Part shown: in pieces, positions 16,005-61,173 of the stretch | Position numbering within the stretch: the first letter of the stretch is position 1 | How the letters are laid out: every line of letters starts with the position of its first letter | NCBI GenBank assembly: GCA_045588365.1 | Contig: JAZNEB010000024.1 | Coordinates: 114,854-178,853, forward strand | DNA: 64,000 nucleotides | Source: Clostridia bacterium | GTDB taxonomy: Bacteria > Bacillota > Clostridia > CAKSNL01 > HGM11501 | Direction of reading: 5' to 3' | The notes under the pieces: model-generated | What the model was told of the DNA's origin: nothing | The model's database searches: none | The model's input: only the letters and a program-made list of their open reading frames with translations | Made by a program: the position numbers and the translations under genes

Positions 16005-16081
16005 GTGCATGTAGCTCAGCTGGATAGAGCACTTGGCTACGGACCAAGGTGTCGAGGGTTCGAATCCTTTCATGCACGCCA
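16005..16081 (+). tRNA. tRNA-Arg (anticodon ACG) with encoded CCA
   Basis: Cloverleaf read by hand: acceptor GUGCAUG/CAUGCAC, D arm GCUC-AGCUGGAUA-GAGC, anticodon stem CUUGG/CCAAG with loop CUACGGA, T arm GAGGG-UUCGAAU-CCUUU, discriminator G, CCA. Confidence 0.85.
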
Positions 16082-16488: not shown

Positions 16489-17043
16489 CTATTCCCTGAT
16501 TTCATAATCAAAGCTAATCATTCTTACGCCGAAAAGTTCTTCTGCCCGGTCGTTATTCAATGTGCGAGAAAAAGCCCGTCCCCGACGATCGATGTAAAGA
16601 GCATCTACTCGGTCAACATTATCTGGACCGGCGCTCCAACCTGTATCCATATAAAATTCAGCACTGCCGGCATAGTAATAGATTTCGGAGGCATTATACC
16701 CTAAAAGCTCTGTAGTATCTACGTCGGAAAGGTCAAGCAGAGTAAAGGAAAGAACCTCATTCCCGTCTTCTTTTGTTTCCTTACTTGGAATGTATATGGT
16801 ATATTTTTTATTGATGACAGAAGCTGTAGAAAAAATGTTTATATCATATTCATCAAACTCACAAACAGCGGTATCGGAAATTGTAATGATTTCTCCGTTC
16901 AGCGAATATTTCAAGGTGAAATCTATTTCTTTTTTTCCTTCATAAATAAATTCTTTAACCAAAGTTATTACAGGCATACTAAAGCAAAAAATAATGAAAG
17001 CATTTAAGGCTATTCCAATAGCAATAAGTAAAGCTTTTTTCAT
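16489..17043 (-). CDS. Small N-terminally membrane-anchored protein; candidate immunity protein (paralog of 55080-55646 and 55664-56236)
   Basis: 184 aa, MKKALLIAIGIALNAFIIFCFSMPVITLVKEFI... with conserved C-terminal AEELFGVRMISFDYEIRE; about 60% identical to the two locus-2 paralogs. Confidence 0.6.
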   Translation of the reverse strand: MKKALLIAIGIALNAFIIFCFSMPVITLVKEFIYEGKKEIDFTLKYSLNGEIITISDTAVCEFDEYDINIFSTASVINKKYTIYIPSKETKEDGNEVLSFTLLDLSDVDTTELLGYNASEIYYYAGSAEFYMDTGWSAGPDNVDRVDALYIDRRGRAFSRTLNNDRAEELFGVRMISFDYEIRE

Positions 17044-17096
17044 AAAAATCCCCTTTTATTTCACTTCTTTGAGTGCAGAAATTACGGAATCTTTTA

Positions 17097-17447
17097 TCAA
17101 TTGTCAGTTGTTTCTCCTTTCGTTTTGATAAAGCCTATGAAAAACACTATACTCCATAAAAAAATCGCAATTCCATACTCCGCTATGGCGATAACTTTTC
17201 CGATGGAAAGCTCGTCGTATTTACTTATAAATGTAACATACGGAAGTAGGAAAATGCATATTTCCAAAAGTCCTTTGAAAAAATTACCTTTACTTGTTTT
17301 CATTTCCATCATGACAAGATAAAAAGGATGTGCCGACATTATGGGAAGCATTATAAATAGATTTTCTGAATTTAAAATTCTGAAAAAAAGTAATAATATC
17401 GAAGGGATGCTTTTTATCAAAAATTTTTTTACCGCTTCTTTTTTCAT
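17097..17447 (-). CDS. Small 3-TM membrane protein (holin-like or immunity candidate)
   Basis: 116 aa, three hydrophobic helices; sits between the PG-binding toxin-like gene and the small anchored protein. Confidence 0.45.
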   Translation of the reverse strand: MKKEAVKKFLIKSIPSILLLFFRILNSENLFIMLPIMSAHPFYLVMMEMKTSKGNFFKGLLEICIFLLPYVTFISKYDELSIGKVIAIAEYGIAIFLWSIVFFIGFIKTKGETTDN

Positions 17448-17464
17448 GACATCACCTTTTTCTT

Positions 17465-18535
17465 TTATTTTCCGTTTACTATAATTCCGTCAGAAAGAAT
17501 AATATTTTCTAAATATCTAACTTTAGGAATTATGCCCAGGACTTGCAAAACTCCTCCGTTTATAAGCATAGTCTGCGCTATTTGACTGCAATTGGAGAAA
17601 AGCAAATTATATCTAGGATTTTTTGTAGCGATATTTATTCCACTTTCTAAAATTTTCTTTCCCTGCTCGGGGGTTATTTTGTATTTTAACCCCTTATCAT
17701 ATTGTTCCGTACAAAAATCCCCATTTGATGTTGGAGTTTTAATTGTTGCTCCCCAAAGAAATTTATCGGTAGTTTCTTCATCAAAAACTCCTATTCGCAT
17801 ATCTGATTGAACACCAAAAGGCCATACTCCTGCTTTAGAGTGCTTAATGTAACTAAATAAAATACTTTCTCCATCTTCGTTTATCAAAAGCAACCCTGCA
17901 TGTCCGGCTCCATACGCACCTTGATTATCAATCAGATAATACGCCTGTGTAATACTTTCAGTATCATAATTTCTTAAATTATCTACCGTAACATCTATTG
18001 CTATCTGAGCTGTTCTTCTATCATTTTCCGTTGCTATAGCATACGCCTCATCAAAAACTGTCAGCAATTTATACTTCGCTGAATCCTCGCCATAGTTATA
18101 TGCATCGGGGTCTTCGCTCCATTCGCCCTTTGCATTATAGCCCGGCTTTATTACTCCCGATTCTTTTATTTTGCTTGTTTCCGGGCTTTTGCTCTCTGCA
18201 TCTGAATTCATAAAATATAAATCCTCTGTTTCAGAAACATCGGAAGAAAACATGTTTTCTTTCTCCTTCTTTTTATCGCTTATAGCTTTCCAGGTTTTGT
18301 CTCCCACAATACCGTCGGGAACAAGACCGTTTTCCTCCTGAAACTTTATGACAGCATTAAATGTGTTTATACCAAAAATTCCGTCTTCCGAAAGCTGTCT
18401 TCCCAAGGCGTCGGTATAGCCCATAGAATTAAGCTCCTTTTGAAGCACCTTTATTGTTTCGGGTGAGCCTGTATGGACAGATAATGTACTGCCCTCATCT
18501 TTTAACTCTTCAAATTCAAATTCGTTGTTATTCAT
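17465..18535 (-). CDS. PG_binding_1-domain protein with C-terminal permuted papain-fold (LRAT/NlpC-P60-like) domain; candidate cell-wall-targeting toxin or lysin
   Basis: 356 aa with no signal peptide. N terminus LQKELNSMGYTDALGRQLSEDGIFGINTFNAVIKFQEENGLVPDGIVGDKTW (peptidoglycan-binding repeat). C terminus AYYLIDNQGAYGAGHAGLLLIN...YNLLFSNCSQIAQTML, aligning with the His...NCEH block of 58418-60136. Confidence 0.6.
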   Translation of the reverse strand: MNNNEFEFEELKDEGSTLSVHTGSPETIKVLQKELNSMGYTDALGRQLSEDGIFGINTFNAVIKFQEENGLVPDGIVGDKTWKAISDKKKEKENMFSSDVSETEDLYFMNSDAESKSPETSKIKESGVIKPGYNAKGEWSEDPDAYNYGEDSAKYKLLTVFDEAYAIATENDRRTAQIAIDVTVDNLRNYDTESITQAYYLIDNQGAYGAGHAGLLLINEDGESILFSYIKHSKAGVWPFGVQSDMRIGVFDEETTDKFLWGATIKTPTSNGDFCTEQYDKGLKYKITPEQGKKILESGINIATKNPRYNLLFSNCSQIAQTMLINGGVLQVLGIIPKVRYLENIILSDGIIVNGK

Positions 18536-18718: not shown

Positions 18719-18995
18719 CTTGCTTTTTTCTACATTATATGTTAGAATGTTTTATAATGTAAAAAAGCTATGAACGGGAAAGTAAGTTTTTCATTTTCTG
18801 TAAAGAGAGGGAGTGCCGTGGGCTGAAAGCCTCCCCGTGAAAAGAAATTCCGAAGTTCGCCCGGGAGCTGCATTTCTGAAACCAAGTAGGATTTGCCGTT
18901 TTGCCTTGCGTCAAAGGATTAAAGTGCCTTTTTTAAGGAATTAGGGTGGTACCGCGGATTTTTTCGTCCCTGCTTTTGCAGGGACTTATTTTTTT
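18719..18995 (+). promoter_or_regulatory. T-box riboswitch leader (Phe specifier) with promoter and terminator, upstream of pheS-pheT
   Basis: Promoter TTGCTT-17-TGTTAGAAT; stem I with an AGAGA GA-motif; UUC present in a candidate specifier loop (gaaattccgaaguucgcc); canonical T-box AATTAGGGTGGTACCGCG at 18939-18956; terminator GUCCCUGC-UUUU-GCAGGGAC plus U9 at 18966-18995. Confidence 0.8.
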
Positions 18996-22430: not shown

Positions 22431-22436
22431 ATAATA

Positions 22437-22462
22437 AGCACCGCCTTTGGCGGTGCTTATCA
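22437..22462. terminator. Palindromic terminator AAGCACCGCC-TTT-GGCGGTGCTT (copy 1 of 3 in the window)
   Basis: 8-bp GC-rich stem; near-identical copies at 54944-54970 and 60281-60312. Confidence 0.6.
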
Positions 22463-44400: not shown

Positions 44401-46688
44401 GTATATGTTGTTTCGCCTTCTTCATAGCAGGTAGGAGCTTTTGTTTCCGTTCCGTCATCCCAGGTGTGGTCTTCGGTTTTAGTTTTGCCGCATTCACAGC
44501 TTCCTGTATGGGTGCCGTCTTCGTTATCCTTCCAGTTTGTAAATTCGCAGGTGTGATTATCTACTGTAGGAACATCGTAACGGTAGAGGCTTATGGCATA
44601 CTGGTTATCATTGGTGGGTGTGGTATCAGTTTCGGAATCCCAACCCTCAGAACCTACCAGAGCCCAGTCTTCACCGCAGATAAAGTAATATTCGGTATCG
44701 CCATCTTCGTTGACGTACTCACGGAAACGAAGTGTAAACATGGCTCCGCCTATAGCGTAGTAGTTGGCAGGATACATAAGCAAGTCGCCTTCTGCTATGT
44801 TTTCATCTATGTTGCCTCGCGCTACCTGTTCGGCGTGGGTATAACCGTCCATATCGTCACGGTATGTGTCATCATCCACCTCTGTAGTGTAGAAATCGAT
44901 TGCCCACGCACCGCCGTCCCACATACCATACTCACCATTAACATAACGTGGAACACCCATATAGCCGGTATTATAAAGGCTATAACTCTGGAATGAATAA
45001 ACGCAATAGTTGGGAAGCAAAGGCATAACCGTAGTCAATCCCATCTCCGTAAAATTCCATTGTTCGGGATTTACGTCAAGCATAAATTCCGAAGGAACTG
45101 CATTTCCCACATAATTCTGATTGAGCAGTGAAATGCTTCCGTCCTCATACGGAACAACTTCAATGGCATTGATGTTTTCACCGCAATCAATAATTCCCTG
45201 TTCATTGGTTTCTCCCGAAGTTTCTTCATCAAGACCTCCCAAAGCAAAATACTTATCGCCGATTTTTGCAACAAAGATATACATATCTTCTTCGTTGATA
45301 TCATCAAGTGAAGTTATTTTTGTGTAAACGGGATTTTCGAGACCGCAGTTATCGCATTTTCCCGTATCTGTATTAAATGCGTGACCTGTAGCCGGAACCT
45401 TTGAAGCCATAGCTTCTTCCCAATACTCATTTTCTTTGCTCTCATCCATAAACATTCCGCAATCTTCACAAAGCCAATATGGGCCGGAACCCGGTTCAAA
45501 GCAAGAAGGTTCTATTACCTCACCTTCTATGTGTATTGCATTCGGATGCCATATCTCGCCGCAGTTGTCACAATAGTTATCATCGCCGTATTCATGACCT
45601 GGAGCATAAACGGTGAGATAATATTCATAATTGCTGTAACCTTCGGGAAGCACGATATACTCCGTTGCTTCGGCGTTGGCAAAATATATCTTACAATCCT
45701 CGCAGTACCAGTATTCAAGGTTTCCGTCCTCTGTGCAGGTTGCTTCAACTGCCGCATTATGTATCATATCCGGGTGCTCACAACGTTCCATATACAGCAT
45801 AATGTTATGGGCACGGTTGTCAATAGCGTCACCGTTTTCATCCTCGGACCAGGAAAGTACCGCGGAAAATTTCGGCTGAGCACCACTGTCATCAAACAGT
45901 ATCAGTGGGCTGTTAAGTGCCCATCCGAAAAGATATCCCTTGTCAGCTGCGTAATCACTCAGTTCCGTACTCTGTTCAAAACGGATGGACTGGGGAAAAA
46001 CGTCATAAGAGGTATCTACGTCGCAGAGATTCTCTCCGTGAACCACGATTTTTCCGTCCAAAACCGTCATATATCCATTATCGGGCGAAAGGATATATGT
46101 ATCCGAAAGTTCTTTATAGGTGAAAAACTCTACTGTATCAGAATCTACCGTAACAGAACCGTCTTCTTCAACAAATTCGGAAAGGTCTATTGCCACACGT
46201 GAACCGTCTTCATTTGTTTCGTTGCCCATTGCGTAGAGCTTTCCGTTATACTCTCCCACAAACAGGAATTTAAAACCGTCCAGATATGGGGTTAATGTGT
46301 GCATACCGCTATTTGCATAGTCATCCTCGTCATAATAAGGATGCTCGGAAGGCACAAAAAGTTCAAAATTCTCTTCAGTTTTACTGTACTCACAGCCCAC
46401 ACAATCATTGCTGTGTACTCCGGGGGTGATAACAACATCTGCCGGTGAAATTTCCTCAGTCATCCCCTCGTCAGAGTAACATTTATCGCAGGTATAATAA
46501 CTGCAGTACCAGAACTCGATATTCCCCGGCGTGGTGCAGTTGCCCATAGTAGCCTCGATATGGGTAACACTGCCGCTGTGCGATGCATGAGCATTTTCTT
46601 CCGCAAGTGCAACCGCCGGCATCAAGCCCGCAATCATAATTATAGCCATAACTACGCCCATCAGTTTCCTGAATTTTCTTATTTTCAT
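41415..46688 (-). CDS. Giant (1757 aa) secreted Cys/His-rich repeat protein with a Listeria-Bacteroides repeat and three C-terminal SLH domains
   Basis: Signal peptide MKIRKFRKLMGVVMAIIMIAGLMPAVALA. About 20 reiterated modules of about 30 aa of the form H.W......H...C...C / E.TC...G...Y.C..C; ...EGFEFGGWYTDELLEKAYDFNTKV... (Flg_new-like). C terminus has three SLH repeats (FKDVKETDKFYPYVLYVVSNNLMVGV..., FSDVDMGAYYGNAVSWAKQNGIVNGV..., FDDASEISEYAISSLNWAVGKGFIKE...). Confidence 0.8.
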   Translation of the reverse strand: MKIRKFRKLMGVVMAIIMIAGLMPAVALAEENAHASHSGSVTHIEATMGNCTTPGNIEFWYCSYYTCDKCYSDEGMTEEISPADVVITPGVHSNDCVGCEYSKTEENFELFVPSEHPYYDEDDYANSGMHTLTPYLDGFKFLFVGEYNGKLYAMGNETNEDGSRVAIDLSEFVEEDGSVTVDSDTVEFFTYKELSDTYILSPDNGYMTVLDGKIVVHGENLCDVDTSYDVFPQSIRFEQSTELSDYAADKGYLFGWALNSPLILFDDSGAQPKFSAVLSWSEDENGDAIDNRAHNIMLYMERCEHPDMIHNAAVEATCTEDGNLEYWYCEDCKIYFANAEATEYIVLPEGYSNYEYYLTVYAPGHEYGDDNYCDNCGEIWHPNAIHIEGEVIEPSCFEPGSGPYWLCEDCGMFMDESKENEYWEEAMASKVPATGHAFNTDTGKCDNCGLENPVYTKITSLDDINEEDMYIFVAKIGDKYFALGGLDEETSGETNEQGIIDCGENINAIEVVPYEDGSISLLNQNYVGNAVPSEFMLDVNPEQWNFTEMGLTTVMPLLPNYCVYSFQSYSLYNTGYMGVPRYVNGEYGMWDGGAWAIDFYTTEVDDDTYRDDMDGYTHAEQVARGNIDENIAEGDLLMYPANYYAIGGAMFTLRFREYVNEDGDTEYYFICGEDWALVGSEGWDSETDTTPTNDNQYAISLYRYDVPTVDNHTCEFTNWKDNEDGTHTGSCECGKTKTEDHTWDDGTETKAPTCYEEGETTYTCTSECGATNTEAIKVTEHEWSKWEDVGEDKHSRICLVKECGETEEDTHDFGKWDTDGKENHKKTCSVCEGTRTEEHEWDNGKSITEPTCVKEGSILYTCQHCPENKEESVASEPDNHNLGKWESKDADEHIHFCLNEGCDFSETETHNIKSEVVQAETCDDEGQNYISCDVCGYENYTTRPALGHKWSDWEVVVAPTETTEGTEQRICQNDNSHIDEREIPVLEHKHKMTNTPGKAATCTEDGNISYYCCEGCNGKFSDIEGNSKLNEEDVILPALDHDWDEWEDTGVNAVADVHSHSCKREGCGISETENHEWSKWTSEGGTAHKKTCSVCKGERTREHALDEGETVKEATVTETGIKKYACVDCGFEKSEVISKIVCDHSFGKWIADDDETHTHVCINENGCTAYQRQNHMWNDGEITKEATETEEGVITYTCLVCSHSMDEAIPMLKHKHRFGAWETGGESGHIRYCENGETCTAAEKAEHKVNSWADNKDGTHSGKCSVCSEEVVKAHSFGDWKEDREGNFKRTCKCGAYDTLIVEQSVEEAVTNTTKAENNGANATLKVQNGVELFNSVLTEEEQASVASGNATVGVYLDVTDIPVNEVSATDKEVAEAVIGEEENGLDETTEIGMYLNIELFKEVVSDNEVAETQITETSGKITITIEIPEELINTDKSKKRTYRIIRIHEDETGNIVTDVIEGNFNKGDNSFSFKTDKFSTYAVVYNDKDAPKRVATGGGGGSVVYTVKFETNGGSNVEKKSVKMNETIAEPEAPVREGFEFGGWYTDELLEKAYDFNTKVIKSFTLFAKWNKVEKIEFKDVKETDKFYPYVLYVVSNNLMVGVSDDEFEPEGNLTRAMLVTILYRAEGEPATNRSIPFSDVDMGAYYGNAVSWAKQNGIVNGVTENEFAPDKNVTREQLAAIMLRYAVYKGMNALTMEENLHFDDASEISEYAISSLNWAVGKGFIKERSKGNLMPKAFATRAEIAEFFTGYLKNE

Positions 46689-52579: not shown

Positions 52580-53809
52580 TTATTTATCATTTTCTTTAAC
52601 TAACTTCTTGGAGTAAAGATAAATCCCTGCACTCCAACCCATCATGGGTGGTGTCTTATATTCCTTGGTAGCAGAAACACTGCCGTCAATGGAATTGTAC
52701 TTTTCCCAGAGCTGTCCTGTTGCTTCAAAGTTCATATCAGCAACTTCAATGTATTTTTTAGCAAGTCGTATGGCATCCTCGGTATATCCGTAACGCATAA
52801 AGCCTTTCATTAACAAAAGCTGTAATGGAGGCCATCCGTGAGGGAAGTCCCACTGAAGATTCATTAAATCGTCTCTCTTTTCACAAGCGGCAACTGCATA
52901 TCTTCCTTCAAGGCGGGGAAGTAACTTCATGGTCTTTTCAGCCTGTTCTGCTGTAGCAAGTCCAACGAACAAAGGATAGAACATGGCAAGTGATACCAAG
53001 TCCCCTTTCTTTTTATTAACAAAATCATAGTCGCAGAACGCTCCAATTTCTTCGTCCCACATAAGCTCATTCATAAGGGTGGCTCTCTTTTCAGCTCTCT
53101 CTTCCCAGATGTTTTCTTCACCCAGGCCAAGCTCCTTTGAGAAGTAAGCCATATTGGTCTCAAGACCGTAAAGCATGGAGTTTAAGCACACAAAGTTAAA
53201 GTGATGATTGTAAACTCCCGCACGGGAGGAAAAGTCCCATCCGCTTTCTGCCCCTGACTGGAAGCTTAAGCTGTATTCTAAAATTTCTTCTTCGGATGTT
53301 GGCATCTCCCTATGTATTCTTCTGCAGTACTCCCTGGCGCATTTTTCATGCTTTGGGTCTGCCCCTAAATATCTGTTAAGGCCGCTTTCGGTCATTCTAT
53401 TTTTCTGCCAGAACTTATATTCCTTTGTTAAAGCATCATAGGCTGTTTTAAGCCATTCTTTATTGGGAAGAGCCTTGTAAACCTCTAAAACCATCATTGA
53501 CAAAAAGGGAGGTTGGCTTCTTGTTTCAAACATATGCCTGTTTGCATTGGGAACATAGCCAAAACGGTTTACCATGTAAATCATGTTGTCAACATTATCC
53601 CTTGCGCTTTCTTCCCTACCGCTTAAAAGCAGACCGAAGTTTGTGAAAAATGTACCCCAGTAGTAAATTTCGTTAAACATGGAACCAACACCTGCAACAG
53701 TGTAAGGCTTGGGCAACCCTATAAATCCATCAGGTCCCTCTGTATCTTCTGTTCTGAAACGGTAATTGCTGTCCCATGTTTTTTCAATGTACTTCTCAAC
53801 TTTATTCAT
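52580..53809 (-). CDS. treA: Alpha,alpha-trehalase (GH37 family)
   Basis: ...SGWDFSSR... and ...QWDFPHGWPPLQ... trehalase signature blocks; about 410 aa. Confidence 0.8.
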   Translation of the reverse strand: MNKVEKYIEKTWDSNYRFRTEDTEGPDGFIGLPKPYTVAGVGSMFNEIYYWGTFFTNFGLLLSGREESARDNVDNMIYMVNRFGYVPNANRHMFETRSQPPFLSMMVLEVYKALPNKEWLKTAYDALTKEYKFWQKNRMTESGLNRYLGADPKHEKCAREYCRRIHREMPTSEEEILEYSLSFQSGAESGWDFSSRAGVYNHHFNFVCLNSMLYGLETNMAYFSKELGLGEENIWEERAEKRATLMNELMWDEEIGAFCDYDFVNKKKGDLVSLAMFYPLFVGLATAEQAEKTMKLLPRLEGRYAVAACEKRDDLMNLQWDFPHGWPPLQLLLMKGFMRYGYTEDAIRLAKKYIEVADMNFEATGQLWEKYNSIDGSVSATKEYKTPPMMGWSAGIYLYSKKLVKENDK

Positions 53810-53931
53810 AAAATAACCTCCTTGATATGAATTCAAGAAAATTATACACTATTTTAAATTATTTTTGAATGCACTAAACGCTTAAAAAAATTGTACTTTT
53901 AGCTGCTTTTAGAATTAACCTTACTATCATT

Positions 53932-54897
53932 TCATTTTTTATCCATGTATCTAAGCTGCTGCGCTTTTGTGTTTCTCTCCCAGAAAACACCGTCTGAATA
54001 ACCCTGAATAGTTTTATCTTTATCTGCCATTTCAAGCCTTTTTTCACATATGGCGGCGTAGTCTTCGTTTTTCTCTATTCCAATAAAATGTCTTTTAAGT
54101 TTTTTTGCCACAACCGATGTGGTTCCCGAGCCTAAAAAGGGGTCAAAAATCACATCCCCCTCATTTGAGCTTGCCAAGATGAGCTTTGCAAGAAGCTTTT
54201 CGGGCTTTTGAGTGGGATGGGGCGTGTTTTCCGCCATGGACCAGTAGGGAACGGATAAATCGTCCCAGAAATTGGACGGATAGGTGTTTCTGAAATTTCC
54301 GTCTTTTGTTTCTTCCCAGTCCTTGGGTGCTCCGTCTTTTTTGTAAGGTGCCATTACCCTTCTTCTAATTTTTACGTCATCAACGTTGAAAGTATAATCC
54401 TTGCCAAAAGTAGCAAACCATATATCTTCCATGCCGTTTTTCCAGTTGCCTTTGGCCCCTCTGCCCTTTTCCCTTTGCCAGGTAATGCGGTTTTTTATGT
54501 GAAAATATTTTTTTAATACATTTCCTATTATCATGCCTGACTCCCAGTCGCAGCAAACATAAAGGGAGGCGTTTTTCTTTAAAAGAGGGAGTACTTTTTT
54601 AATCCAATTTTCGGTGTATTCTTCATATTCCTCTTCGGTGGTTTTCTTAAATTTATTTCCCCCGAAGTTTTTTTCCATATTATAAGGAGGATCTACAATA
54701 AGCAGGTCCACAAAAGCTTTTGGAAGAAAATCCATTATCTTTAAGGTGTCGCCCAACAGAGTTTTATCTAAAACTTCAGGTAAGGAAATCTCTTTTTCTA
54801 TTTTTAAGCACCGCGCAAGATAAAGCTTTTTTTCTTCTTCCATAAGCCTTATGGTCTTATTTCTCTCTGTCAAAGCTCCCACCTCCCCAAAGTACAA
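53932..54897 (-). CDS. Solitary DNA methyltransferase (N6-adenine/N4-cytosine, beta class)
   Basis: Motif IV LLIVDPPYN precedes motif I VIFDPFLGSGTTSVVA: the beta-class order typical of the N6_N4_Mtase family. No adjacent restriction endonuclease candidate. Confidence 0.8.
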   Translation of the reverse strand: MYFGEVGALTERNKTIRLMEEEKKLYLARCLKIEKEISLPEVLDKTLLGDTLKIMDFLPKAFVDLLIVDPPYNMEKNFGGNKFKKTTEEEYEEYTENWIKKVLPLLKKNASLYVCCDWESGMIIGNVLKKYFHIKNRITWQREKGRGAKGNWKNGMEDIWFATFGKDYTFNVDDVKIRRRVMAPYKKDGAPKDWEETKDGNFRNTYPSNFWDDLSVPYWSMAENTPHPTQKPEKLLAKLILASSNEGDVIFDPFLGSGTTSVVAKKLKRHFIGIEKNEDYAAICEKRLEMADKDKTIQGYSDGVFWERNTKAQQLRYMDKK

Positions 54898-54943
54898 TTA
54901 CTTATCATATATTGTACTTTAGGTTAAAAGAAAAGTCAAGAAA

Positions 54944-54970
54944 AAAAGCACCGCCAAGGGCGGTGCTTTT
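54944..54970. terminator. Palindromic terminator AAAGCACCGCC-AAG-GGCGGTGCTTTT (copy 2 of 3)
   Basis: Same 8-bp stem as 22437 and 60281; lies between the MTase and toxin/immunity cassette 2. Confidence 0.6.
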
Positions 54971-55079
54971 CAGGGGCAAATTACTTAAAAAGCAGTTTTA
55001 TACTAAGAAACTTATAATCTTCCGATCAAAAATGACTGTAACAAAAAGCGGGCGTCGCCTTTTGTCTGCCGTCACCACT

Positions 55080-55646
55080 TTACTTCTTCCTGATTTCATA
55101 GTCGAAGCTGATCATTCTTACGCCGAAAAGCTCTTCTGCTTTGTCGTTATGTATAATTTGGCTTTGACTATGTCCGTAATCATCTATATAAGAAACATCT
55201 ACACCATTCGGGTCATGGGGTGGATTATCTCCCCAACCGATATCCATATAAAAATTCGCATTTCCGGCATAGTAATAGATTCGAGTGGCATTATGCCCAA
55301 AAAGATCTGTAGTCTCTACGTCGGAAAGATCAAGTAAATTGAAGGAAAGATGCGCATCTGCGTCTTCTTTTGTTTCCTTACTTGGGATGTATATTTTATA
55401 TACCTTTTCAATTCCTGGCGCTGAATAAAATGTGAACTTATGGCGGTCAAACTCACAAACAGCAGTATCGGAAATGGTGATGACCTCTCCGTTTAGTGAA
55501 TACTTTAATGTAAAGTCTATTTCCTTTTTTCTTTCCGGAATAAATTCTTTAACCAAAGATATTACAGGCATACTAAAACAAAGAAAAATGAAAGCATATA
55601 AAACTGCGCCAATAGCAAAAACGGCAATGAGTAAAGTTTTTTTCAT
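55080..55646 (-). CDS. Small N-terminally anchored protein, candidate immunity protein (tandem paralog 1)
   Basis: 188 aa, MKKTLLIAVFAIGAVLYAFIFLCFSMPVISLVKEF...AEELFGVRMISFDYEIRKK. The first 60 aa are identical to the neighbouring paralog; the central region diverges. Confidence 0.6.
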   Translation of the reverse strand: MKKTLLIAVFAIGAVLYAFIFLCFSMPVISLVKEFIPERKKEIDFTLKYSLNGEVITISDTAVCEFDRHKFTFYSAPGIEKVYKIYIPSKETKEDADAHLSFNLLDLSDVETTDLFGHNATRIYYYAGNANFYMDIGWGDNPPHDPNGVDVSYIDDYGHSQSQIIHNDKAEELFGVRMISFDYEIRKK

Positions 55647-55663
55647 AAAAATCCCCTTTTATT

Positions 55664-56236
55664 TTACTTCTTCCTGATTTCATAGTCGAAACTAATCATT
55701 CTTACGCCGAAAAGCTCTTCTGCCTCGTCTGCAGTAAAGCTACCATAAACAATCTTTCCGTCCTTTTTGTAAGCAAATTCAACCCAGTCATCGCTGATAC
55801 TTTGGGGGGGAACGGGATGTTGCCCGGATTCATTCATATAGAAATTTCCATTTCCACCATAGAAATAAAGCTCCAGTATCTCTTTTCCAAATTTTTCATA
55901 TGTGTTCTCTTTCCGTAAATCAAGTAAAGTTATAAACAAAGCTTCATTGTCCATATCGGGCTTTTCCTTGCCCGGGATGTATATTTTATATACCTTTTCA
56001 ATTCCTGGCGCTGAATAAAATGTGAACTTATGGCGGTCAAACTCACAAACAGCAGTATCGGAAATGGTGATGACCTCTCCGTTTAGTGAATACTTTAAGG
56101 TGAAATCTATTTCTTTTTTTCTTTCCGGAATAAATTCTTTAACCAAAGATATTACAGGCATACTAAAACAAAGAAAAATGAAAGCATATAAAACTGCGCT
56201 AATAGCAAAAACGGCAATGAGTAAAGTTTTTTTCAT
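55664..56236 (-). CDS. Small N-terminally anchored protein, candidate immunity protein (tandem paralog 2)
   Basis: 190 aa. Same N- and C-terminal blocks; immediately downstream of the GHSKGG hydrolase gene through the conserved junction AAGTAAAATAAAAGGGGATTTTTATG. Confidence 0.6.
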   Translation of the reverse strand: MKKTLLIAVFAISAVLYAFIFLCFSMPVISLVKEFIPERKKEIDFTLKYSLNGEVITISDTAVCEFDRHKFTFYSAPGIEKVYKIYIPGKEKPDMDNEALFITLLDLRKENTYEKFGKEILELYFYGGNGNFYMNESGQHPVPPQSISDDWVEFAYKKDGKIVYGSFTADEAEELFGVRMISFDYEIRKK

Positions 56237-56248
56237 AAAAATCCCCTT

Positions 56249-57601
56249 TTATTTTACTTCTTTGAGTGCACCAATGGCGGACTCGATTTTGTGATTTTTA
56301 TATCCCCCGTACAAAATAGCTGCAACTTTTAATACGTCTATTAAGTTTGAAGGTGTTTTCGGAATGAATTTAAGTAAATGTGCCCATTCATTCTGATCCG
56401 GCAGGAAAGTTACATCAACATTTTCATTTACATACTTTTGGACATCGTGTAAAATCTCATTTTCCACTATGTAAGCTTTAATATTACCGGTATAATTTTC
56501 AGACGAAACTCCGTAGTCTTCTAAGTTTGCCCAGGCGGGATTGAAAACCACGGCATCGCAATTTGTAGCAGTTGCTGCGGCAATTGCCTCGGCACCACCC
56601 TTTGAGTGTCCCACAAAGGTTACCTTTTTATCCCCGGCATAATTTTTGAAAATCTTTGCATAAGCGATGGCTTCTTTCATATCTCTGGAATCGGGTCCTG
56701 AAACCTGTTCGAAATTGTTTTCCCAATCAATCCACTCTTTACTTCCCTCGTAAGCAACTATATATTCTGATGGGTCATAAGGATTGTCGTCTTTCTTAAT
56801 ATATACTCCCAGTTTTAACCCCTCTCTGCCACGGAAACAATGAAGCAATTCCCAGATGGATACTTCTTTATCGTCGTCACTTGAATTTTCATCATTATTA
56901 TATATATGCTGTGCAATTTCTGCGGCATCAAGATCAAAATCGGATATTTCATCCACCTTTGTGCTGAGATTTTTTAGGGGGACTTTGCCGGAAGGTAAAT
57001 CAAGCGCTACTGTTTCGTAGACAGGAGGCTTAAATAAATTAAATTCCTCATCTGCGTAATTAAATTCAGCTTGTTCTTCTTCGGTAAAACTTGTTTCGTT
57101 TTCTGATGGATAAGGGAACTTTACTTCTTTTGGGAAAGAATTATATAAGGCATCTTCATATATGCTTTGAGAAAAGTTTTCCGAAGAAGGCTCTTTCGCC
57201 TCATTATCTTTCTCTCTTTTTTTATCACTTATAGCTTTCCAGGTTTTATCACCTACAACACCATCGGGAAAAAGGCCGTTATCCTCCTGAAACTTTATAA
57301 CAGAATTAAATGTGTTTATGCCGTAAATGCCATCTTCCTCTAGCTTTTCACCTCTGCCGTCGGTATAGCCCATAGAATTAAGTTCCTTTTGTAATTCCTT
57401 TATGGTATAAGGTGAGCCGGAATGTACCGAAAGCTCTGATCCCTTTTCCTTTAAGCTTTCAAAATCTTCCTCATTTTCTGCGAAAGCATCCTCGGTTACC
57501 GCATTTTCCTTAATGCGGGCAGGGGAAGTTTCAAAGGCCTTGTCTATAGTGGCAAAAGCTCCGTGTTTTCGCGGATTATTAACATTATCACTGGCTTCCA
57601 C
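56249..57601 (-). CDS. PG_binding_1-domain protein with C-terminal alpha/beta-hydrolase (lipase/esterase-like, GHSKGG) domain; 5'-truncated relative to its paralog and lacking an ATG start
   Basis: One PG-binding repeat (LQKELNSMGYTDGRGEKLEEDGIYGINTFNSVIKFQEDNGLFPDGVVGDKTW). C terminus ...YIVAYEGSKEWIDWENNF...KVTFVGHSKGGAEAIAAA... (nucleophile elbow GxSxG). The reading frame stays open upstream to a stop at about 57656 with only a GTG at 57601. Confidence 0.6.
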   Translation of the reverse strand: MEASDNVNNPRKHGAFATIDKAFETSPARIKENAVTEDAFAENEEDFESLKEKGSELSVHSGSPYTIKELQKELNSMGYTDGRGEKLEEDGIYGINTFNSVIKFQEDNGLFPDGVVGDKTWKAISDKKREKDNEAKEPSSENFSQSIYEDALYNSFPKEVKFPYPSENETSFTEEEQAEFNYADEEFNLFKPPVYETVALDLPSGKVPLKNLSTKVDEISDFDLDAAEIAQHIYNNDENSSDDDKEVSIWELLHCFRGREGLKLGVYIKKDDNPYDPSEYIVAYEGSKEWIDWENNFEQVSGPDSRDMKEAIAYAKIFKNYAGDKKVTFVGHSKGGAEAIAAATATNCDAVVFNPAWANLEDYGVSSENYTGNIKAYIVENEILHDVQKYVNENVDVTFLPDQNEWAHLLKFIPKTPSNLIDVLKVAAILYGGYKNHKIESAIGALKEVK

Positions 57602-57644
57602 ATCATTTTGCGGAGAGACTGCTCCGCTGTCTGTGTTGGAGAGG

Positions 57645-58403
57645 TTAGTTATACTTTATAACACAAGCTATACCGTAGCAAATGACAGTTGATACTATTT
57701 TAATTAAACCTATATTCAAGTCATCTCCTATAGGTATAAACCAGATAAGCTGCGCTACTAATAGGATAAATCCCTTATACAGGATATCCCCTTTAGCTGC
57801 GAAGCGATAGCTTACAATCGCGGTATATATGGGTTCTGCTACCATCCAAAAGAGAAAAGCAACCACTGCCACAGTACTGTATTTTGTAAATATCAGTAAT
57901 AAATCGACGAGATAGAAGCATCCTGAAGGAACAAAGCACAAAAGAAACCATTTAACACCGTTTTTGTGACGGAAAGATATGTACTTTATGAAGCAAGCAA
58001 TTGCAAAGCAAAGGGTGATTCCTATTATCTGATAAATACCTGCGGTAAGCTCCATTTCTGCTATCATAGGCCAGTCATTAATACTGTTTCTAAAATAAGG
58101 AATGAACCATAATATTTGAGGAGAAATCAAAGCAAGATACATAAATATAGCACTTTTCTTATTTATGAAATAATAACTCACTCCTGCAAGATATAATGGA
58201 TTTACCATAAACAAATAAAAACTGAACAAAAATAAATTCTGCAATTCATCAGAATCAGATAATTCCAAATACAGCTGAAAAACAGCCACAGGTAACAGGC
58301 AGAGTAAAATCCATATAGCCGCTTTTACAACAATTTTCAAAAATTTCATAAAAATCACTCCATGTCTAAGCTTTAAGTAAATTTTATTGATAATGCCTTC
58401 CAA
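57645..58403 (-). CDS. Polytopic membrane protein (about 7 TM), candidate immunity or export/holin-like partner
   Basis: 252 aa, hydrophobic helices throughout, Trp/Tyr/Phe-rich; sandwiched between the two PG-binding genes. Confidence 0.5.
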   Translation of the reverse strand: MEGIINKIYLKLRHGVIFMKFLKIVVKAAIWILLCLLPVAVFQLYLELSDSDELQNLFLFSFYLFMVNPLYLAGVSYYFINKKSAIFMYLALISPQILWFIPYFRNSINDWPMIAEMELTAGIYQIIGITLCFAIACFIKYISFRHKNGVKWFLLCFVPSGCFYLVDLLLIFTKYSTVAVVAFLFWMVAEPIYTAIVSYRFAAKGDILYKGFILLVAQLIWFIPIGDDLNIGLIKIVSTVICYGIACVIKYN

Positions 58404-58417
58404 AATTGTTCCTTAAA

Positions 58418-60136
58418 TTACTTCTCTATTTCCGTTTTAAAAGTTAAATTCGGCGCATGCTTTTTCGCTATATTTACGCCCCCTATGTTAAGTATAGATA
58501 GTGCCACATGCTCACAATTTTGCTCCAACAAGTTGTATTGAAAATTTTCTGCTATGGTTATGGCCACAGCCTGTTCAAACATTGCCTTGCCAAGTGCCGG
58601 TTTAATTGAATATTGAGAACTGTTTTCATACTGTTCTGATATGTATTTACCAGATGTTGACACTCCATAACTCTTTTTGTTTTCAAGAAAATACTGAGTT
58701 TCGTACTTTCCCAAAACACTTATTCTCATTTCTGAGTCAGAATCTTTTAATTTATCCTGATCTTGAGGATAAAAGCTAAATAAAACTCCTTCTCCACTTT
58801 CGTTGACCAGCAAAACTCCAGCATGTCCCATTCCACTGGCCCCATCTGAATCATTTAAATAGTATGCTGTCGTAATTGATGTATCATCGAAATTTCTCAA
58901 ATCTGTTATAGCATAGTTTGCAGTATATTCCGCTACCTTATCACCATTTCCAATTGCTATCTCGCGAACCTCTGTCAATTCTTCCATCAAAGCTTCTTTT
59001 GCAGGGGTATTATTAAAATCCTGTTCCTTGCGATAATCTGTATTTATAATATTTCTTTGATCCGGATTGTTAATAAAGTTACGCACTTCCTCCTCGTCAA
59101 ATCCATATTTACCTACAAAAGTATCAACCATTGTTGTAGCTGCCTCTTTAATTTTTTCTTCAGCCTTGTCTTTTATCCATTCTTTCGCATCTTCAGCTTT
59201 TCCTTTTACCCATTCTTCTGCCTCTTCAACTTTTCCTTTGGCGTATCCAAGTACACAATCAAAATCCAAATCTGCTACATTTCCATAGTACAGCTCTGCT
59301 TGGTCTGGTATTTCTGCTTTTTCTTCCGGCAAAAAGGAAATCTCAGCATTTGCCCCGTCATAGCTTTTCTTTCTTCTCACTTTTTCAGCCGTTATACCCG
59401 AAGTTTTTTTCCGTTTATCACTTATAGCTTTCCAGGTTTTATCACCTACAACACCATCGGGAAAAAGGCCGTTATCCTCCTGAAACTTTATGACGGCATT
59501 GAATGTGTTTTTGCCGTAAATGCCATCTTCCTCTAGCTTTTCACCTCTGCCGTCGGTATAGCCCATAGAATTAAGTTCCTTTTGTAATTCCTTTATGGTA
59601 TAAGGTGAGCCGGAATGTACCGAAAGCACAGAACCCTTTTCCTTCAGGCTTTCAAAATCTTCCTCATTTTCTGCGAAAGCATCCTCGGTTACCGCATTTT
59701 CCTTAATGCGGGCAGGGGAAGTTTCAAAGGCCTTGTCTATAGTGGCAAAAGCTCCGTGTTCCCTTGGATTATTAACATTATCCCGGGCTTCCACATCATT
59801 TTGCGGAGAGACTGCTCCGCTGTCTGTGTTGGAGAGGTTAGTATAATTTTCCTCTTCTTCCTTTTTCTTTTTATCCACCATAGATTTCCAGGTTTTGTCG
59901 CCCACAACACCGTCGGGAAAAAGTCCGTTGTCCTCTTGGTATTTTATGACAGCATTAAATGTGTTTTTGCCGAAATCTCCGTCCTCTGAAAGCTTCCTTC
60001 CCCAGGCGTCAGTATAACCCCACTCATTTAAGCTTTTTTGCATTTCGCGTATAGCGATTGGGTCTCCTGTATGGACAGATAGCGTGCTACCCTCATCTTT
60101 TAAGTCTTCAAATTCAATTTCGTTGTTTTTATTCAT
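58418..60136 (-). CDS. Tandem PG_binding_1-domain protein with C-terminal permuted papain-fold LRAT/NlpC-P60-like domain (His...NCEH); candidate toxin or lysin
   Basis: 572 aa, no signal peptide. Two peptidoglycan-binding repeats (aa about 20-85 and 170-235), a Lys/Glu-rich coiled linker, and C terminus TAYYLNDSDGASGMGHAGVLLVNESGEGVLFSF...YNLLEQNCEHVALSILNIGG. The NCEH with an upstream catalytic His is the hallmark order of LRAT-type permuted NlpC/P60 enzymes. Confidence 0.65.
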   Translation of the reverse strand: MNKNNEIEFEDLKDEGSTLSVHTGDPIAIREMQKSLNEWGYTDAWGRKLSEDGDFGKNTFNAVIKYQEDNGLFPDGVVGDKTWKSMVDKKKKEEEENYTNLSNTDSGAVSPQNDVEARDNVNNPREHGAFATIDKAFETSPARIKENAVTEDAFAENEEDFESLKEKGSVLSVHSGSPYTIKELQKELNSMGYTDGRGEKLEEDGIYGKNTFNAVIKFQEDNGLFPDGVVGDKTWKAISDKRKKTSGITAEKVRRKKSYDGANAEISFLPEEKAEIPDQAELYYGNVADLDFDCVLGYAKGKVEEAEEWVKGKAEDAKEWIKDKAEEKIKEAATTMVDTFVGKYGFDEEEVRNFINNPDQRNIINTDYRKEQDFNNTPAKEALMEELTEVREIAIGNGDKVAEYTANYAITDLRNFDDTSITTAYYLNDSDGASGMGHAGVLLVNESGEGVLFSFYPQDQDKLKDSDSEMRISVLGKYETQYFLENKKSYGVSTSGKYISEQYENSSQYSIKPALGKAMFEQAVAITIAENFQYNLLEQNCEHVALSILNIGGVNIAKKHAPNLTFKTEIEK

Positions 60137-60280
60137 TTTATCATCCTTTCGTTAATTTTGCAAGTGTATTTACTCGAGTAACCCTGCATATAATATTATA
60201 ACACATTTAACTTGATATGTCAATACTTATTTTGCTTCTAAAGTTATTTATAACCTTTGGAGCGGCTTTTAAAGCACATA

Positions 60281-60312
60281 AAAAAGCACCGCCTTTGGCG
60301 GTGCTTTTTTAC
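60281..60312. terminator. Palindromic terminator AAAAAAGCACCGCC-TTT-GGCGGTGCTTTTTT (copy 3 of 3)
   Basis: Between cassette 2 and the AKR gene; same stem as 22437 and 54944. Confidence 0.6.
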
Positions 60313-60327
60313 CTTTTAGTTGTCTAT

Positions 60328-61173
60328 TTATCTCTTTATAAGATTAAAATACTCATTATCCCAGCGGGTAGGATCCCAGTAGGAACGGGTGTTGGTGTCA
60401 AGCTGTGCAATTTTTACCATATCTTCATCGGTTAAAGCAAAATCGAATACATCCTTGTTTGCGATAATTCTTTCCTTTTTAACGCTCTTGGGAATAACTA
60501 CATGGCCTGACTGTACGTGCCAGCGAACCATTACCTGAGCGCCGCTCTTTCCGTACTGCTGACCGATTTCGGTGATTACGGGATTATCAATTAAAGAGTG
60601 GTCCCGTCCGCCAAGTGGGCTCCAGGCTTCAACCTGAATTCCCATAGCCTTGCAGTATGCCTTAACATTCTTCTGCTGATAGGAAGGATGCATCTCAACC
60701 TGATTGATTGCAGGAAGAGTGTAGCCTCTGTCAAGTAAAGCCTGAATCTGATAAGGCTCAAAGTTACTTACACCGATAACACGAATTCTCTTTGCCTCAT
60801 AAAAGGACATCAAAACTTCGTAAGCTTCAATGAAATTGGGAACGGGCCAGTGAAGTAAAAGCTGGTCCCAGTATCCCCCGGGAGCTATGGAAAGAGACTT
60901 TTCAATGCCCTCTTTAACTGTGTTGGCTCTTATATCAGCAGAAGCAACCTTGCTGGTTAAGAAAATTTCTTCTCTCTTTATTCCGCTTTCAATTACGCCC
61001 TTTGCCACGTCTTCTTCATTGTTGTATGCAACGGCAGTATCAATGTGGCGATAGCCTGCTTCAATAGCCCATCTTACGGCTGTGCTTGTTTCTGCACCGG
61101 GCTCTGAATGGAAAACGCCAAGACCAATCTGGGGAATTTCCACGCCGTTGTTCAATTTAATCATAGGTATCAT
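60328..61173 (-). CDS. Aldo/keto reductase (2,5-diketo-D-gluconate reductase-like)
   Basis: MIPMIKLNNGVEIPQIGLGVF...HIDTAVAYNNEE... AKR catalytic tetrad context; 281 aa. Confidence 0.8.
   Translation of the reverse strand: MIPMIKLNNGVEIPQIGLGVFHSEPGAETSTAVRWAIEAGYRHIDTAVAYNNEEDVAKGVIESGIKREEIFLTSKVASADIRANTVKEGIEKSLSIAPGGYWDQLLLHWPVPNFIEAYEVLMSFYEAKRIRVIGVSNFEPYQIQALLDRGYTLPAINQVEMHPSYQQKNVKAYCKAMGIQVEAWSPLGGRDHSLIDNPVITEIGQQYGKSGAQVMVRWHVQSGHVVIPKSVKKERIIANKDVFDFALTDEDMVKIAQLDTNTRSYWDPTRWDNEYFNLIKR

Follow-up and report, generated by a model that had tools for sequence, protein, structure and literature searches.

A probable polymorphic toxin/immunity operon of gut Clostridia with an orphan-like toxin module and a near-identical direct repeat

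Contig JAZNEB010000024.1 of a Clostridia bacterium (GenBank assembly GCA_045588365.1) was analysed over a 64,000-nt stretch, referred to here as the window, in which five tightly spaced genes run on the minus strand between a promoter and an intrinsic terminator: a toxin-like gene (gene A), a gene for a membrane protein, a second toxin-like gene (gene B) and two immunity-like paralogs (imm1 and imm2). All five open reading frames (ORFs) are intact. Genes A and B share a block of DNA that is near-identical at the nucleotide level, and ahead of gene B this block begins inside the stop codon of the preceding gene. We propose, with a probability of about 0.72, that the array is a chromosomal polymorphic toxin/immunity operon of gut Clostridia in which B is an orphan toxin module comparable to those of rhs and cdi loci, and in which the repeats are a substrate for recombination.

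Results

Self-BLASTN of window positions 54500-60400 and a separate repeat search returned the same repeat pair, the only outstanding one in the self-alignment. Positions 57221-57657 match 59414-59849 at 95.9% identity over 437 nt, with 17 mismatches and 1 gap, and contain an ungapped core (57221-57649 against 59414-59842) of 429 nt with 16 mismatches (96.3%). The copies are direct repeats on the same (minus) strand, offset by 2,193 bp. The initial annotation had described about 430 bp of near-identical DNA with abrupt limits; its size and the abruptness hold, but its coordinates were off by some 10-40 nt at each end. At the gene-5' end the boundary is sharp at ACTAACC (57649/59842), beyond which lies the end of the membrane gene in one copy and the end, rich in lysine and glutamate, of peptidoglycan (PG)-binding repeat 1 in the other. 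At the gene-3' end it is equally sharp, directly after ...AAGTGATAAA (57221/59414), where the PG-binding domain finishes (KTWKAISDK); past this point genes A and B diverge completely. The repeat thus takes in non-domain linker besides the PG-binding domain, and the peptide common to both copies, TNLSNTDSGAVSPQNDVEA, is the shared linker peptide that had been noted before. The remaining pairs of PG-binding repeats in the window (repeat 1 against repeat 2, cassette 1 against cassette 2) are 80-84% identical over 115-290 nt. Because the other pairs stay at this level and the block includes linker outside the domain, its identity is one of DNA and exceeds what protein conservation would give, so that mere protein-level similarity, the explanation that a self-alignment might have favoured, does not apply.

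The differences between the copies are unevenly spread. The 16 core mismatches lie in three clusters, with identical runs of 113 and 116 nt between them and of 57 and 78 nt at the ends, and the median gap between mismatches is 3 nt (clustering P ~2e-5 by permutation). Twelve codons differ, of which seven synonymously. Such patchy and mostly synonymous differences point to gene-conversion mosaicism rather than to a single event followed by clock-like decay.

The copy ahead of gene B forms a novel joint with the membrane gene (Table 1). The TAA stop of the membrane gene (57647-57645) is inside the repeat, where the bases are read AAC-TAA-CC; in gene A the same bases read ACT-AAC-CTC. The membrane protein, 252 amino acids (aa) long as listed from TTG 58403 but with a likely start at ATG 58349, chosen on the basis of homologues and a GGAG Shine-Dalgarno sequence, is a tandem fusion or internal duplication of a unit of ~125 aa. 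This unit occurs as separate proteins in related loci (designated L, and homologous proteins P), namely of 141 aa in L010 and 146 aa in L008; the 141-aa product, encoded in L010 behind the A-type toxin P0038, is 48% identical to the first half of the window protein, and for the 146-aa one the identity to the window protein is 40%. The second unit of the window protein ends directly after 'KY', without the partly basic tail of ~20-25 residues found in homologues. Since the repeat starts in the stop codon and the tail is lost, it appears that an illegitimate joint cut the immunity gene short and connected it to a mid-linker point in a gene with the order PG repeat 1, linker, PG repeat 2. The 146-aa homologue in L008 is itself an orphan: it comes after an immunity gene of phospholipase type, and its surroundings contain no A-type toxin. 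A fusion of the membrane protein to B by frameshifting or read-through was rejected, the reading frames being different and no sign of a slippery site having been noticed, although none was looked for.

Gene B consists of part of the linker, one PG-binding repeat, a second linker specific to B (57065-57220) and a domain resembling phospholipases (56252-56950), which has the motif GHSKGG. Its frame is closed upstream by TAA 57658-57656, and between this stop and GTG 57601 there is no ATG, GTG or TTG in frame; the gene has no ATG start, and the GTG is its only canonical start, as the initial annotation held. No Shine-Dalgarno sequence is found within 20 nt of it, the only nearby GGAG being 20 nt upstream within a 6-bp hairpin stem. 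This differs from the neighbouring genes, as gene A, the cassette-1 toxin, three immunity genes of 184-190 aa and both candidate starts of the membrane gene have a Shine-Dalgarno sequence (AGGA, GGAG or AAGGGG) 5-12 nt upstream. The hairpin (GCGGAG/CTCCGC) occurs in both repeat copies and was not adopted as a regulatory element. The local fold is unremarkable (RNA folding around the junction and the GTG gave z = -1.08, like shuffled sequences). Counted from the GTG, the first 45 residues of B are equivalent to the linker between domains in A and in P0004, and the start is unlike the native N-termini, M...(D/E)(D/E)FxxLK, of the full-length PG-phospholipase homologues P0003 and P0005. From these signals we infer that B by itself undergoes little or no translation. 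The earlier description of B as 5'-truncated is right in that the native N-terminus is lost and the gene begins in mid-linker, but not in the sense of a bare toxin domain, for a complete PG-binding domain is kept. Likewise, the module is orphan-like and lacks an ATG, as had been said in support of its possible non-expression, and it lacks a Shine-Dalgarno sequence as well, yet some expression from GTG 57601 is possible.

The two C-terminal domains differ in type. In B, the GxSxG nucleophile motif (GHSKGG) is kept in P0002-P0009, the domain scores 21.2 bits against a cut-off of 21.1 for the Pfam family Mbeg1-like (PF11187), and PF26363 (Phospholipase-like) is a precomputed hit for P0001, the annotated 450-aa product of B. 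It matches a 'T6SS lipase effector' (type VI secretion system, T6SS) in the PDB (7ubz, E 2.3e-6), and homologues of the domain in other bacteria are fused to RHS repeats and to DUF4280 (PAAR-like). Gene A has an ATG start with an AGGA Shine-Dalgarno sequence, and PG_binding_1 is detected in two stretches (Pfam, E 7.7e-31). Its C-terminal domain has the permuted order of catalytic residues, His before Cys: His66, in the GH-G motif, is invariant across 8 homologues, and the Cys of NC[DES][HQ] (NCEH in gene A) is kept in every homologue that reaches it, P0042 ending before it. In Pfam, the match of the domain to LRAT (E 0.0049) was below cut-off, as was that of the cassette-1 toxin to TseH (E 0.0059). 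An AlphaFold model of the domain has a pLDDT of 84, and a Foldseek search against the PDB gave nothing significant; a profile search of the PDB with the family alignment matched the PG-binding head only, and NCBIfam gave far-sub-threshold matches only, through the same head. The closest protein to the catalytic domain is the T6SS effector TseH, at 15% identity. Permuted NlpC/P60 toxins including TseH have reported phospholipase activity (PMC12994826), from which the A domain is probably directed at lipids as well and, by this analogy, is probably a lipid-attacking hydrolase. Taking motifs, family assignments and matches to T6SS effectors together, both C-terminal domains are of the effector type of toxin.

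Genes A and B belong to a larger set in which alternative C-terminal domains are carried on a common PG head (~70-97% identity), with at least four unrelated or diverged types. The A-type TseH-like domain is found in gene A and P0038-P0041; a second TseH-like type in P0010 (the cassette-1 gene 17465-18535), P0011 and L004; the phospholipase in gene B, P0002, P0003 and P0005; and a domain without family assignment in P0004. The predicted immunity gene downstream co-varies with the toxin domain. In L008 and L009, homologues of imm1/imm2 (186, 194 and 180 aa, against 190 and 188 aa in the window) come immediately after full-length PG-phospholipase genes; after the A-type toxin in L010, L002 and the window comes a member of the 141/252-aa membrane family. 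Of the marks of polymorphic toxins, a secretion or trafficking element was not seen. No signal peptide or recognised export signal is present on any of the toxins, the head being PG_binding_1/3 only in Pfam, and the N-terminus of gene A (MNKNNEIEFEDLKDEGS...) has no hydrophobic stretch resembling a signal peptide. The window ORFs scanned with Pfam and the loci L001, L008, L009 and L010 contain no genes for type VII secretion (T7SS), T6SS or two-partner secretion. PGB is listed as an accessory adhesion domain of polymorphic toxins and not as a trafficking domain (Zhang et al. 2012, PMC3482391). PADLOC gave no match for A, the membrane gene, B, imm1, imm2 or the cassette-1 toxin, and these genes were not assigned to a known anti-phage defence system.

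A different arrangement of the family is seen in the Clostridia locus L010 (5562-9668), where two TseH-like toxins without a PG-binding head (348 and 302 aa) are each followed by a small membrane protein. The headless toxin genes have a common 83-nt linker repeat (81% identity), and a 125-aa chimera has an N-terminus of immunity type ahead of the final 35 residues of a toxin, giving a 'graveyard' array in which no main gene is visible. Such remnants of earlier displacements are frequent in the family, and cassette 1, with its few residual phospholipase codons before an orphan immunity gene, is another case.

The two immunity paralogs are mosaic relative to each other. Positions 55373-55672 and 55963-56262 are 97% identical over 300 nt, as are the last 61 nt (55079-55139 against 55663-55723), and the middle of ~230 nt is diverged; this looks like a cassette-style exchange of a specificity region. 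No Pfam, NCBIfam or PADLOC match was obtained for this single-anchor family of 184-194 aa. The middle of imm2 resembles the orphan immunity gene of cassette 1 (80%, 55233-55672 against 16636-17069), and tandem immunity paralogs follow the phospholipase gene in L009 too. Two metagenome scaffolds from ENA carry an immunity gene very close to that of the window. L014 (1-1392) is 90.6% identical to the window overall and 99.7% in the immunity gene, with a dS of 0.39 in the phospholipase part and 0.009 in imm1; L015 (1-947) has an imm1-type gene with 99.4% identity behind a cassette-1-type upstream region (90.7% to window 17263-16853). These patterns indicate that immunity genes reassort independently of toxins.

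The five genes are framed by clear sequence signals. The only 12/12 match to a sigma-70 promoter in 54800-60400 is at 60223-60195, shortly after the aldo-keto-reductase gene with its bidirectional terminator, and a scan for minus-strand terminators found none between this promoter and 54970. The whole array is probably co-transcribed from A's promoter, and the immunity genes, which have normal ribosome-binding sites, are probably expressed as protein.

The only close relative that we found is the metagenome-assembled genome (MAG) fecal_MAG_294 (Clostridia bacterium, GCA_045123995.1), and the comparison of the junction is therefore with one other genome. Its contig 6 (L001) is syntenic with window 64000-60027 at 88.7% identity, and the dS of the aldo-keto-reductase gene is 0.385. 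Its contig 19 (L002, JBGVKY010000019.1, 2.2 kb) is 99.6% identical to window 59670-57516 over 2,156 nt, a match that runs through the toxin domain and the membrane gene and takes in the same joint. The strain of the window is thus not the only one with this joint. No hits to the exact junction (AAAGTATAACTAACCTCTCCAACAC) were obtained in JGI metagenome contigs, and none were confirmed in a protein-guided search with gene B there. Two of the MAG contigs, L002 and L003, end in the same 141 nt that begin L004, and the start of L002 has a 140-nt run in L004 (127-266), a pattern typical of a k=141 assembly graph that was broken at a repeat. We infer a window-like path from L003 (PG repeat 1 and linker) through L002 (PG repeat 2, A-type toxin and membrane gene) to L004. 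The latter starts at ACTAACC and has the same GTG-start N-terminus, the PG repeat and the specific linker of B (91.6% to 57649-57065). Beyond this linker the sequence changes to a TseH-like type-2 toxin, after which comes a membrane protein of 282 aa. If this path holds, the toxin in the orphan slot would vary between genomes, and a second breakpoint would lie near 57065.

The MAG also bears on the history of the repeat. In one mismatch cluster the A copy of the MAG has the state of the window A copy, and in another that of the window B copy, a mosaic which fits repeated gene conversion among PG modules and not a single recent event followed by decay. The high identity of the block (99.6%) relative to the flank (88.7%) suggests recent horizontal movement of the block, or else mis-binning of small MAG contigs. 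In L003 the MAG block seems to have another upstream flank, with a glycoside-hydrolase-like gene.

The consequences of recombination between the repeats were computed. Crossovers simulated at three points each gave an in-frame ORF of 1,695 nt, encoding 564 aa in the order PG repeat 1, linker, PG repeat 2 and phospholipase, under A's promoter. The crossover deletes 2,193 bp, comprising the toxin domain of A and its immunity gene.

Table 1. Positions of the repeat copies, genes and signals in the window
Feature	Position	Strand	Description
Repeat copy in gene A	59414..59849	minus	Second half of linker and PG-binding repeat 2
Repeat copy at 5' end of gene B	57221..57657	minus	Novel joint with membrane gene at 57645-57657 (...AAGTATA/ACTAACC...; the slash marks the joint)
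Gene A, predicted main toxin, 572 aa	58418..60136	minus	PG-binding repeat 1, linker, PG-binding repeat 2, C-terminal permuted NlpC/P60 (TseH/LRAT-like)
Gene A, putative toxin domain	58421..59020	minus	His...Cys (GH-AG ... NCEH), permuted papain-like fold
Multi-pass membrane protein, predicted immunity for toxin A	57645..58403	minus	Listed from TTG 58403; likely start ATG 58349
Gene B, putative orphan toxin	56249..57655	minus	Open frame from 57655; sole canonical start GTG 57601 (450 aa)
Immunity paralog 1 (imm1), 190 aa	55664..56236	minus	N-terminal membrane anchor; predicted cognate of phospholipase toxin
Immunity paralog 2 (imm2), 188 aa	55080..55646	minus	Mosaic; ends similar to paralog 1, middle diverged
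Putative operon promoter	60195..60223	minus	TTGACA, 17 nt, TATAAT; TG before the -10 box
Intrinsic terminator, operon end	54942..54970	minus	GCACCGCC-CTTG-GGCGGTGC then T7
Cassette 1, same family	16489..18535	minus	PG-binding and TseH-like toxin 17465-18535; membrane ORF; remnant; orphan immunity gene

Discussion

In the scenario that we favour, illegitimate recombination would have joined the 437-nt block (half of the linker and PG repeat 2) to a truncated 3' end of the membrane gene, and through the same joint B would have lost its promoter and ribosome-binding site along with its start codon and first PG repeat. Gene A would be the expressed main toxin with the membrane protein as its immunity, and the two paralogs following B would be cognate to the latter. 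The direct repeats could then serve as substrate for homologous recombination, with a crossover moving the B toxin domain into the expression site as a toxin switch, and gene conversion among PG repeats would keep the block near-identical. The reading frame of the switched gene is that of the simulated crossovers, and such switching may occur by analogy with the systems discussed below. Module shuffling by recombination, as put forward in the initial annotation, is retained, but not the direction it assumed, in which the 5' part of B was replaced by an internal segment of its neighbour: a 5' replacement, the displacement of an older gene with both PG repeats and the phospholipase by an incoming toxin/immunity module, and a deletion between tandem full-length paralogs all fit and cannot be told apart. 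Nor is it established that the event was recent, as the same junction is found in an independent MAG with a flank of just 88.7% identity and, apparently, with a different toxin after it.

Several observations weigh against this scenario, and most of them speak for B as a functional second toxin that starts from GTG 57601 by coupling or reinitiation, with the block reflecting concerted evolution of the PG heads, an alternative which we consider unlikely. Read from the GTG, B is a complete PG_binding_1 domain followed by a toxin, the architecture of the single-PG homologues P0003 and P0005. It stays an intact ORF of 450 codons in an AT-rich genome, the source annotation gives the 450-aa product, and the GTG is in frame 43 nt past the upstream stop; termination-reinitiation or weak leaderless-type initiation could yield a functional single-PG toxin. 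Signs of decay are absent, the ratio of nonsynonymous to synonymous substitution rates (dN/dS) being 0.11 between the repeat copies and 0.26 between the B toxin domain and the metagenomic allele in L014, and the latter domain is, or has been, under purifying selection. The mosaic of mismatches, with a MAG copy that mixes both window states, is likewise what concerted evolution would leave, and the recurrence of the same GTG-start arrangement in fecal_MAG_294, with a different toxin inferred after it, could mean that the arrangement is functional as it stands. That the toxins are secreted and antibacterial is proposed from domain homology and gene context. Set against a functional B are the lack of a Shine-Dalgarno sequence near the GTG, unlike in the neighbouring genes, the 45 residues of interdomain linker where the family N-terminus would be expected, and the onset of identity in mid-linker within the stop codon of a gene that has lost its C-terminal tail, which is the signature of an illegitimate joint. 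We continue to prefer B as an orphan module.

Two further explanations have much lower probability. The genes could form a phage-type lysis cassette or encode cell-wall hydrolases (an endolysin and a holin-like protein), with the repeat as an ordinary domain duplication. The PG-binding head is nearest in the PDB to the modular endolysins KZ144 (3bkh, E 8e-12) and 7rum and to spore cortex-lytic enzymes, the sub-threshold NCBIfam matches through the head are to SleB, the proteins lack a signal peptide as endolysins do, and a membrane protein adjoins. We nevertheless regard this as very improbable, given that the catalytic domains match toxin effectors (7ubz, TseH and proteins with RHS/PAAR-like parts) and not a lysozyme, amidase or transglycosylase, and that swapped C-terminal domains, co-varying downstream genes and orphan remnants are hallmarks of toxin/immunity systems. 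There are no phage genes in the window. A scan of IMG/VR with gene A and a distant BLASTN of the whole cassette against PLSDB plasmids returned nothing; with housekeeping genes as neighbours, a phage or plasmid origin was rejected. The least probable explanation of all is that the duplicated block is an artefact of assembly, a chimeric join or a collapsed repeat. The family does break short-read MAG assembly into contigs of 2.2-2.4 kb, and the window comes from a 183-kb contig for which the assembly method is unstated, but there are 16-17 differences between the copies, each of their four flanks is unique, the five ORFs are intact, and the joint between membrane gene and linker was recovered independently in JBGVKY010000019.1.

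The arrangement is reminiscent of orphan toxin modules in Proteobacteria, an analogy drawn at the outset that the layout bears out (PMC3150448; PMC3967940): a toxin fragment on the same strand after a main pair, with a block of homology just before the variable domain. Orphan rhs toxins have no initiation signals, and recombination that brings them into the main gene has been demonstrated to activate them (Koskiniemi et al. 2014, PMC3967940). The orphan rhs-CT/rhsI module of Salmonella Typhimurium LT2 described there resembles gene B and its immunity genes in its position after the main pair, its homology block, its own immunity gene, the lack (for gene B an apparent one) of initiation signals of its own and the formation of an expressed fusion by recombination between main gene and orphan, which here is in frame by computation. 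In contrast, the constant region here is a PG_binding_1 repeat and linker and not an Rhs/YD core with a PxxxxDPxGL boundary, the host belongs to the Clostridia, no T6SS is seen, and an entire head domain and a GTG in frame are retained in the orphan. For orphan cdiA-CT modules, too, recombination has been proposed (Poole et al. 2011, PMC3150448). Orphan cdiA-CT/cdiI pairs are similarly 5'-truncated toxin fragments with cognate immunity after the main pair, which keep the conserved motif region just before the variable domain and in which the immunity genes retain expression signals; they differ in that our locus has no CdiB/CdiA two-partner secretion and no VENN motif, the boundary being the end of the PG-binding domain (KTWKAISDK).

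Among Gram-positive systems, the LXG toxins of Firmicutes secreted by T7SS (Whitney et al. 2017, PMC5555719) also have a variable C-terminal domain and an adjacent immunity gene, and some of them hit the envelope. However, no LXG domain was detected here by Pfam, and no WXG100 or EssC genes were found in the scanned window ORFs or the inspected related loci. At the level of single domains, A differs from TseH of V. cholerae (a T6SS effector, PDB 6v98) and Tox-Act1 (PMC12994826) in its 15% identity, in not reaching the Pfam cut-offs for TseH and LRAT, in being carried on a PG-binding head instead of being delivered by a T6SS, and in its predicted immunity protein, which is a polytopic membrane protein. 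B has the GHSKGG alpha/beta-hydrolase motif of Tle-type phospholipase effectors (PDB 7ubz; PF26363; PF11187) and shares RHS and PAAR-like carriers with them through its homologues, but has a different head domain, a different host and an immunity family of 184-194 aa with a single membrane anchor.

One possibility goes further. Proteins with a PG_binding_1 head and no signal peptide may be an undescribed family of polymorphic toxins in Clostridia, exported by neither Sec nor T7SS, in which the PG repeat would be both a wall-targeting head and a handle for recombination, two membrane-targeting toxins would be made from one operon through termination-reinitiation, and blocks would move between species. 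Taken as a whole, we see this as tentative and rather doubtful.

The preferred reading of B as an orphan module involves no new principle. It would extend a mechanism of orphan toxin reservoirs, described for the most part in rhs and cdi loci of Proteobacteria, to a toxin family of gut Clostridia with a PG-binding head, two predicted membrane-lipid-targeting domains (TseH- and Tle-related) and no recognisable export signal. It also yields a testable prediction, namely that a deletion of 2,193 bp between the 437-nt repeats switches the toxin that is expressed. Two immunity families are flagged by the analysis, the family of 184-194 aa without assignment and the polytopic membrane family. On the practical side, the repeats explain why short-read assemblies break at these loci, and the annotated 450-aa product with a GTG start may not be made.

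Other features of the window

Cassette 1 has a membrane ORF of 116 aa (17097-17447) that appears unannotated, and the last ~6-8 codons of a phospholipase gene (...ALKEVK and stop, ~17044-17077) precede the orphan immunity gene of phospholipase type (16489-17043). It is located between tRNA-Arg(acg) (16005-16081) and the T-box leader of pheS (18761-18974).

Near-identical copies (28/29 and 25/26 nt) of a palindromic terminator, AAAAAGCACCGCC...GGCGGTGCTTTTT, are found at 60279-60311, 54942-54970 and 22433-22458. Those after the aldo-keto-reductase gene (60279-60311) and after imm2 (54942-54970) bracket cassette 2, the array of the five genes, exactly, and the third is placed after pheT. The repeated terminator may be a common terminator or an element similar to repetitive extragenic palindromes (REP-like), or it may be the footprint of a cassette insertion.

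Directly downstream of the operon is a solitary N6/N4 DNA methyltransferase gene (53932-54897; PADLOC MTase_II, E 2e-70) with a promoter-like site of its own (54939-54911). No restriction-enzyme gene was identified in 52580-55080, where an adjacent ORF of 418 aa (52580-53836) lay outside the scan. Elsewhere in the window, two giant surface proteins of 3,476 aa (24287-34717) and 1,757 aa (41415-46688) have C-terminal SLH domains and Listeria-Bacteroides repeats, the larger with five F5/8 type C domains; from these proteins, the host appears to have an S-layer-type cell envelope.

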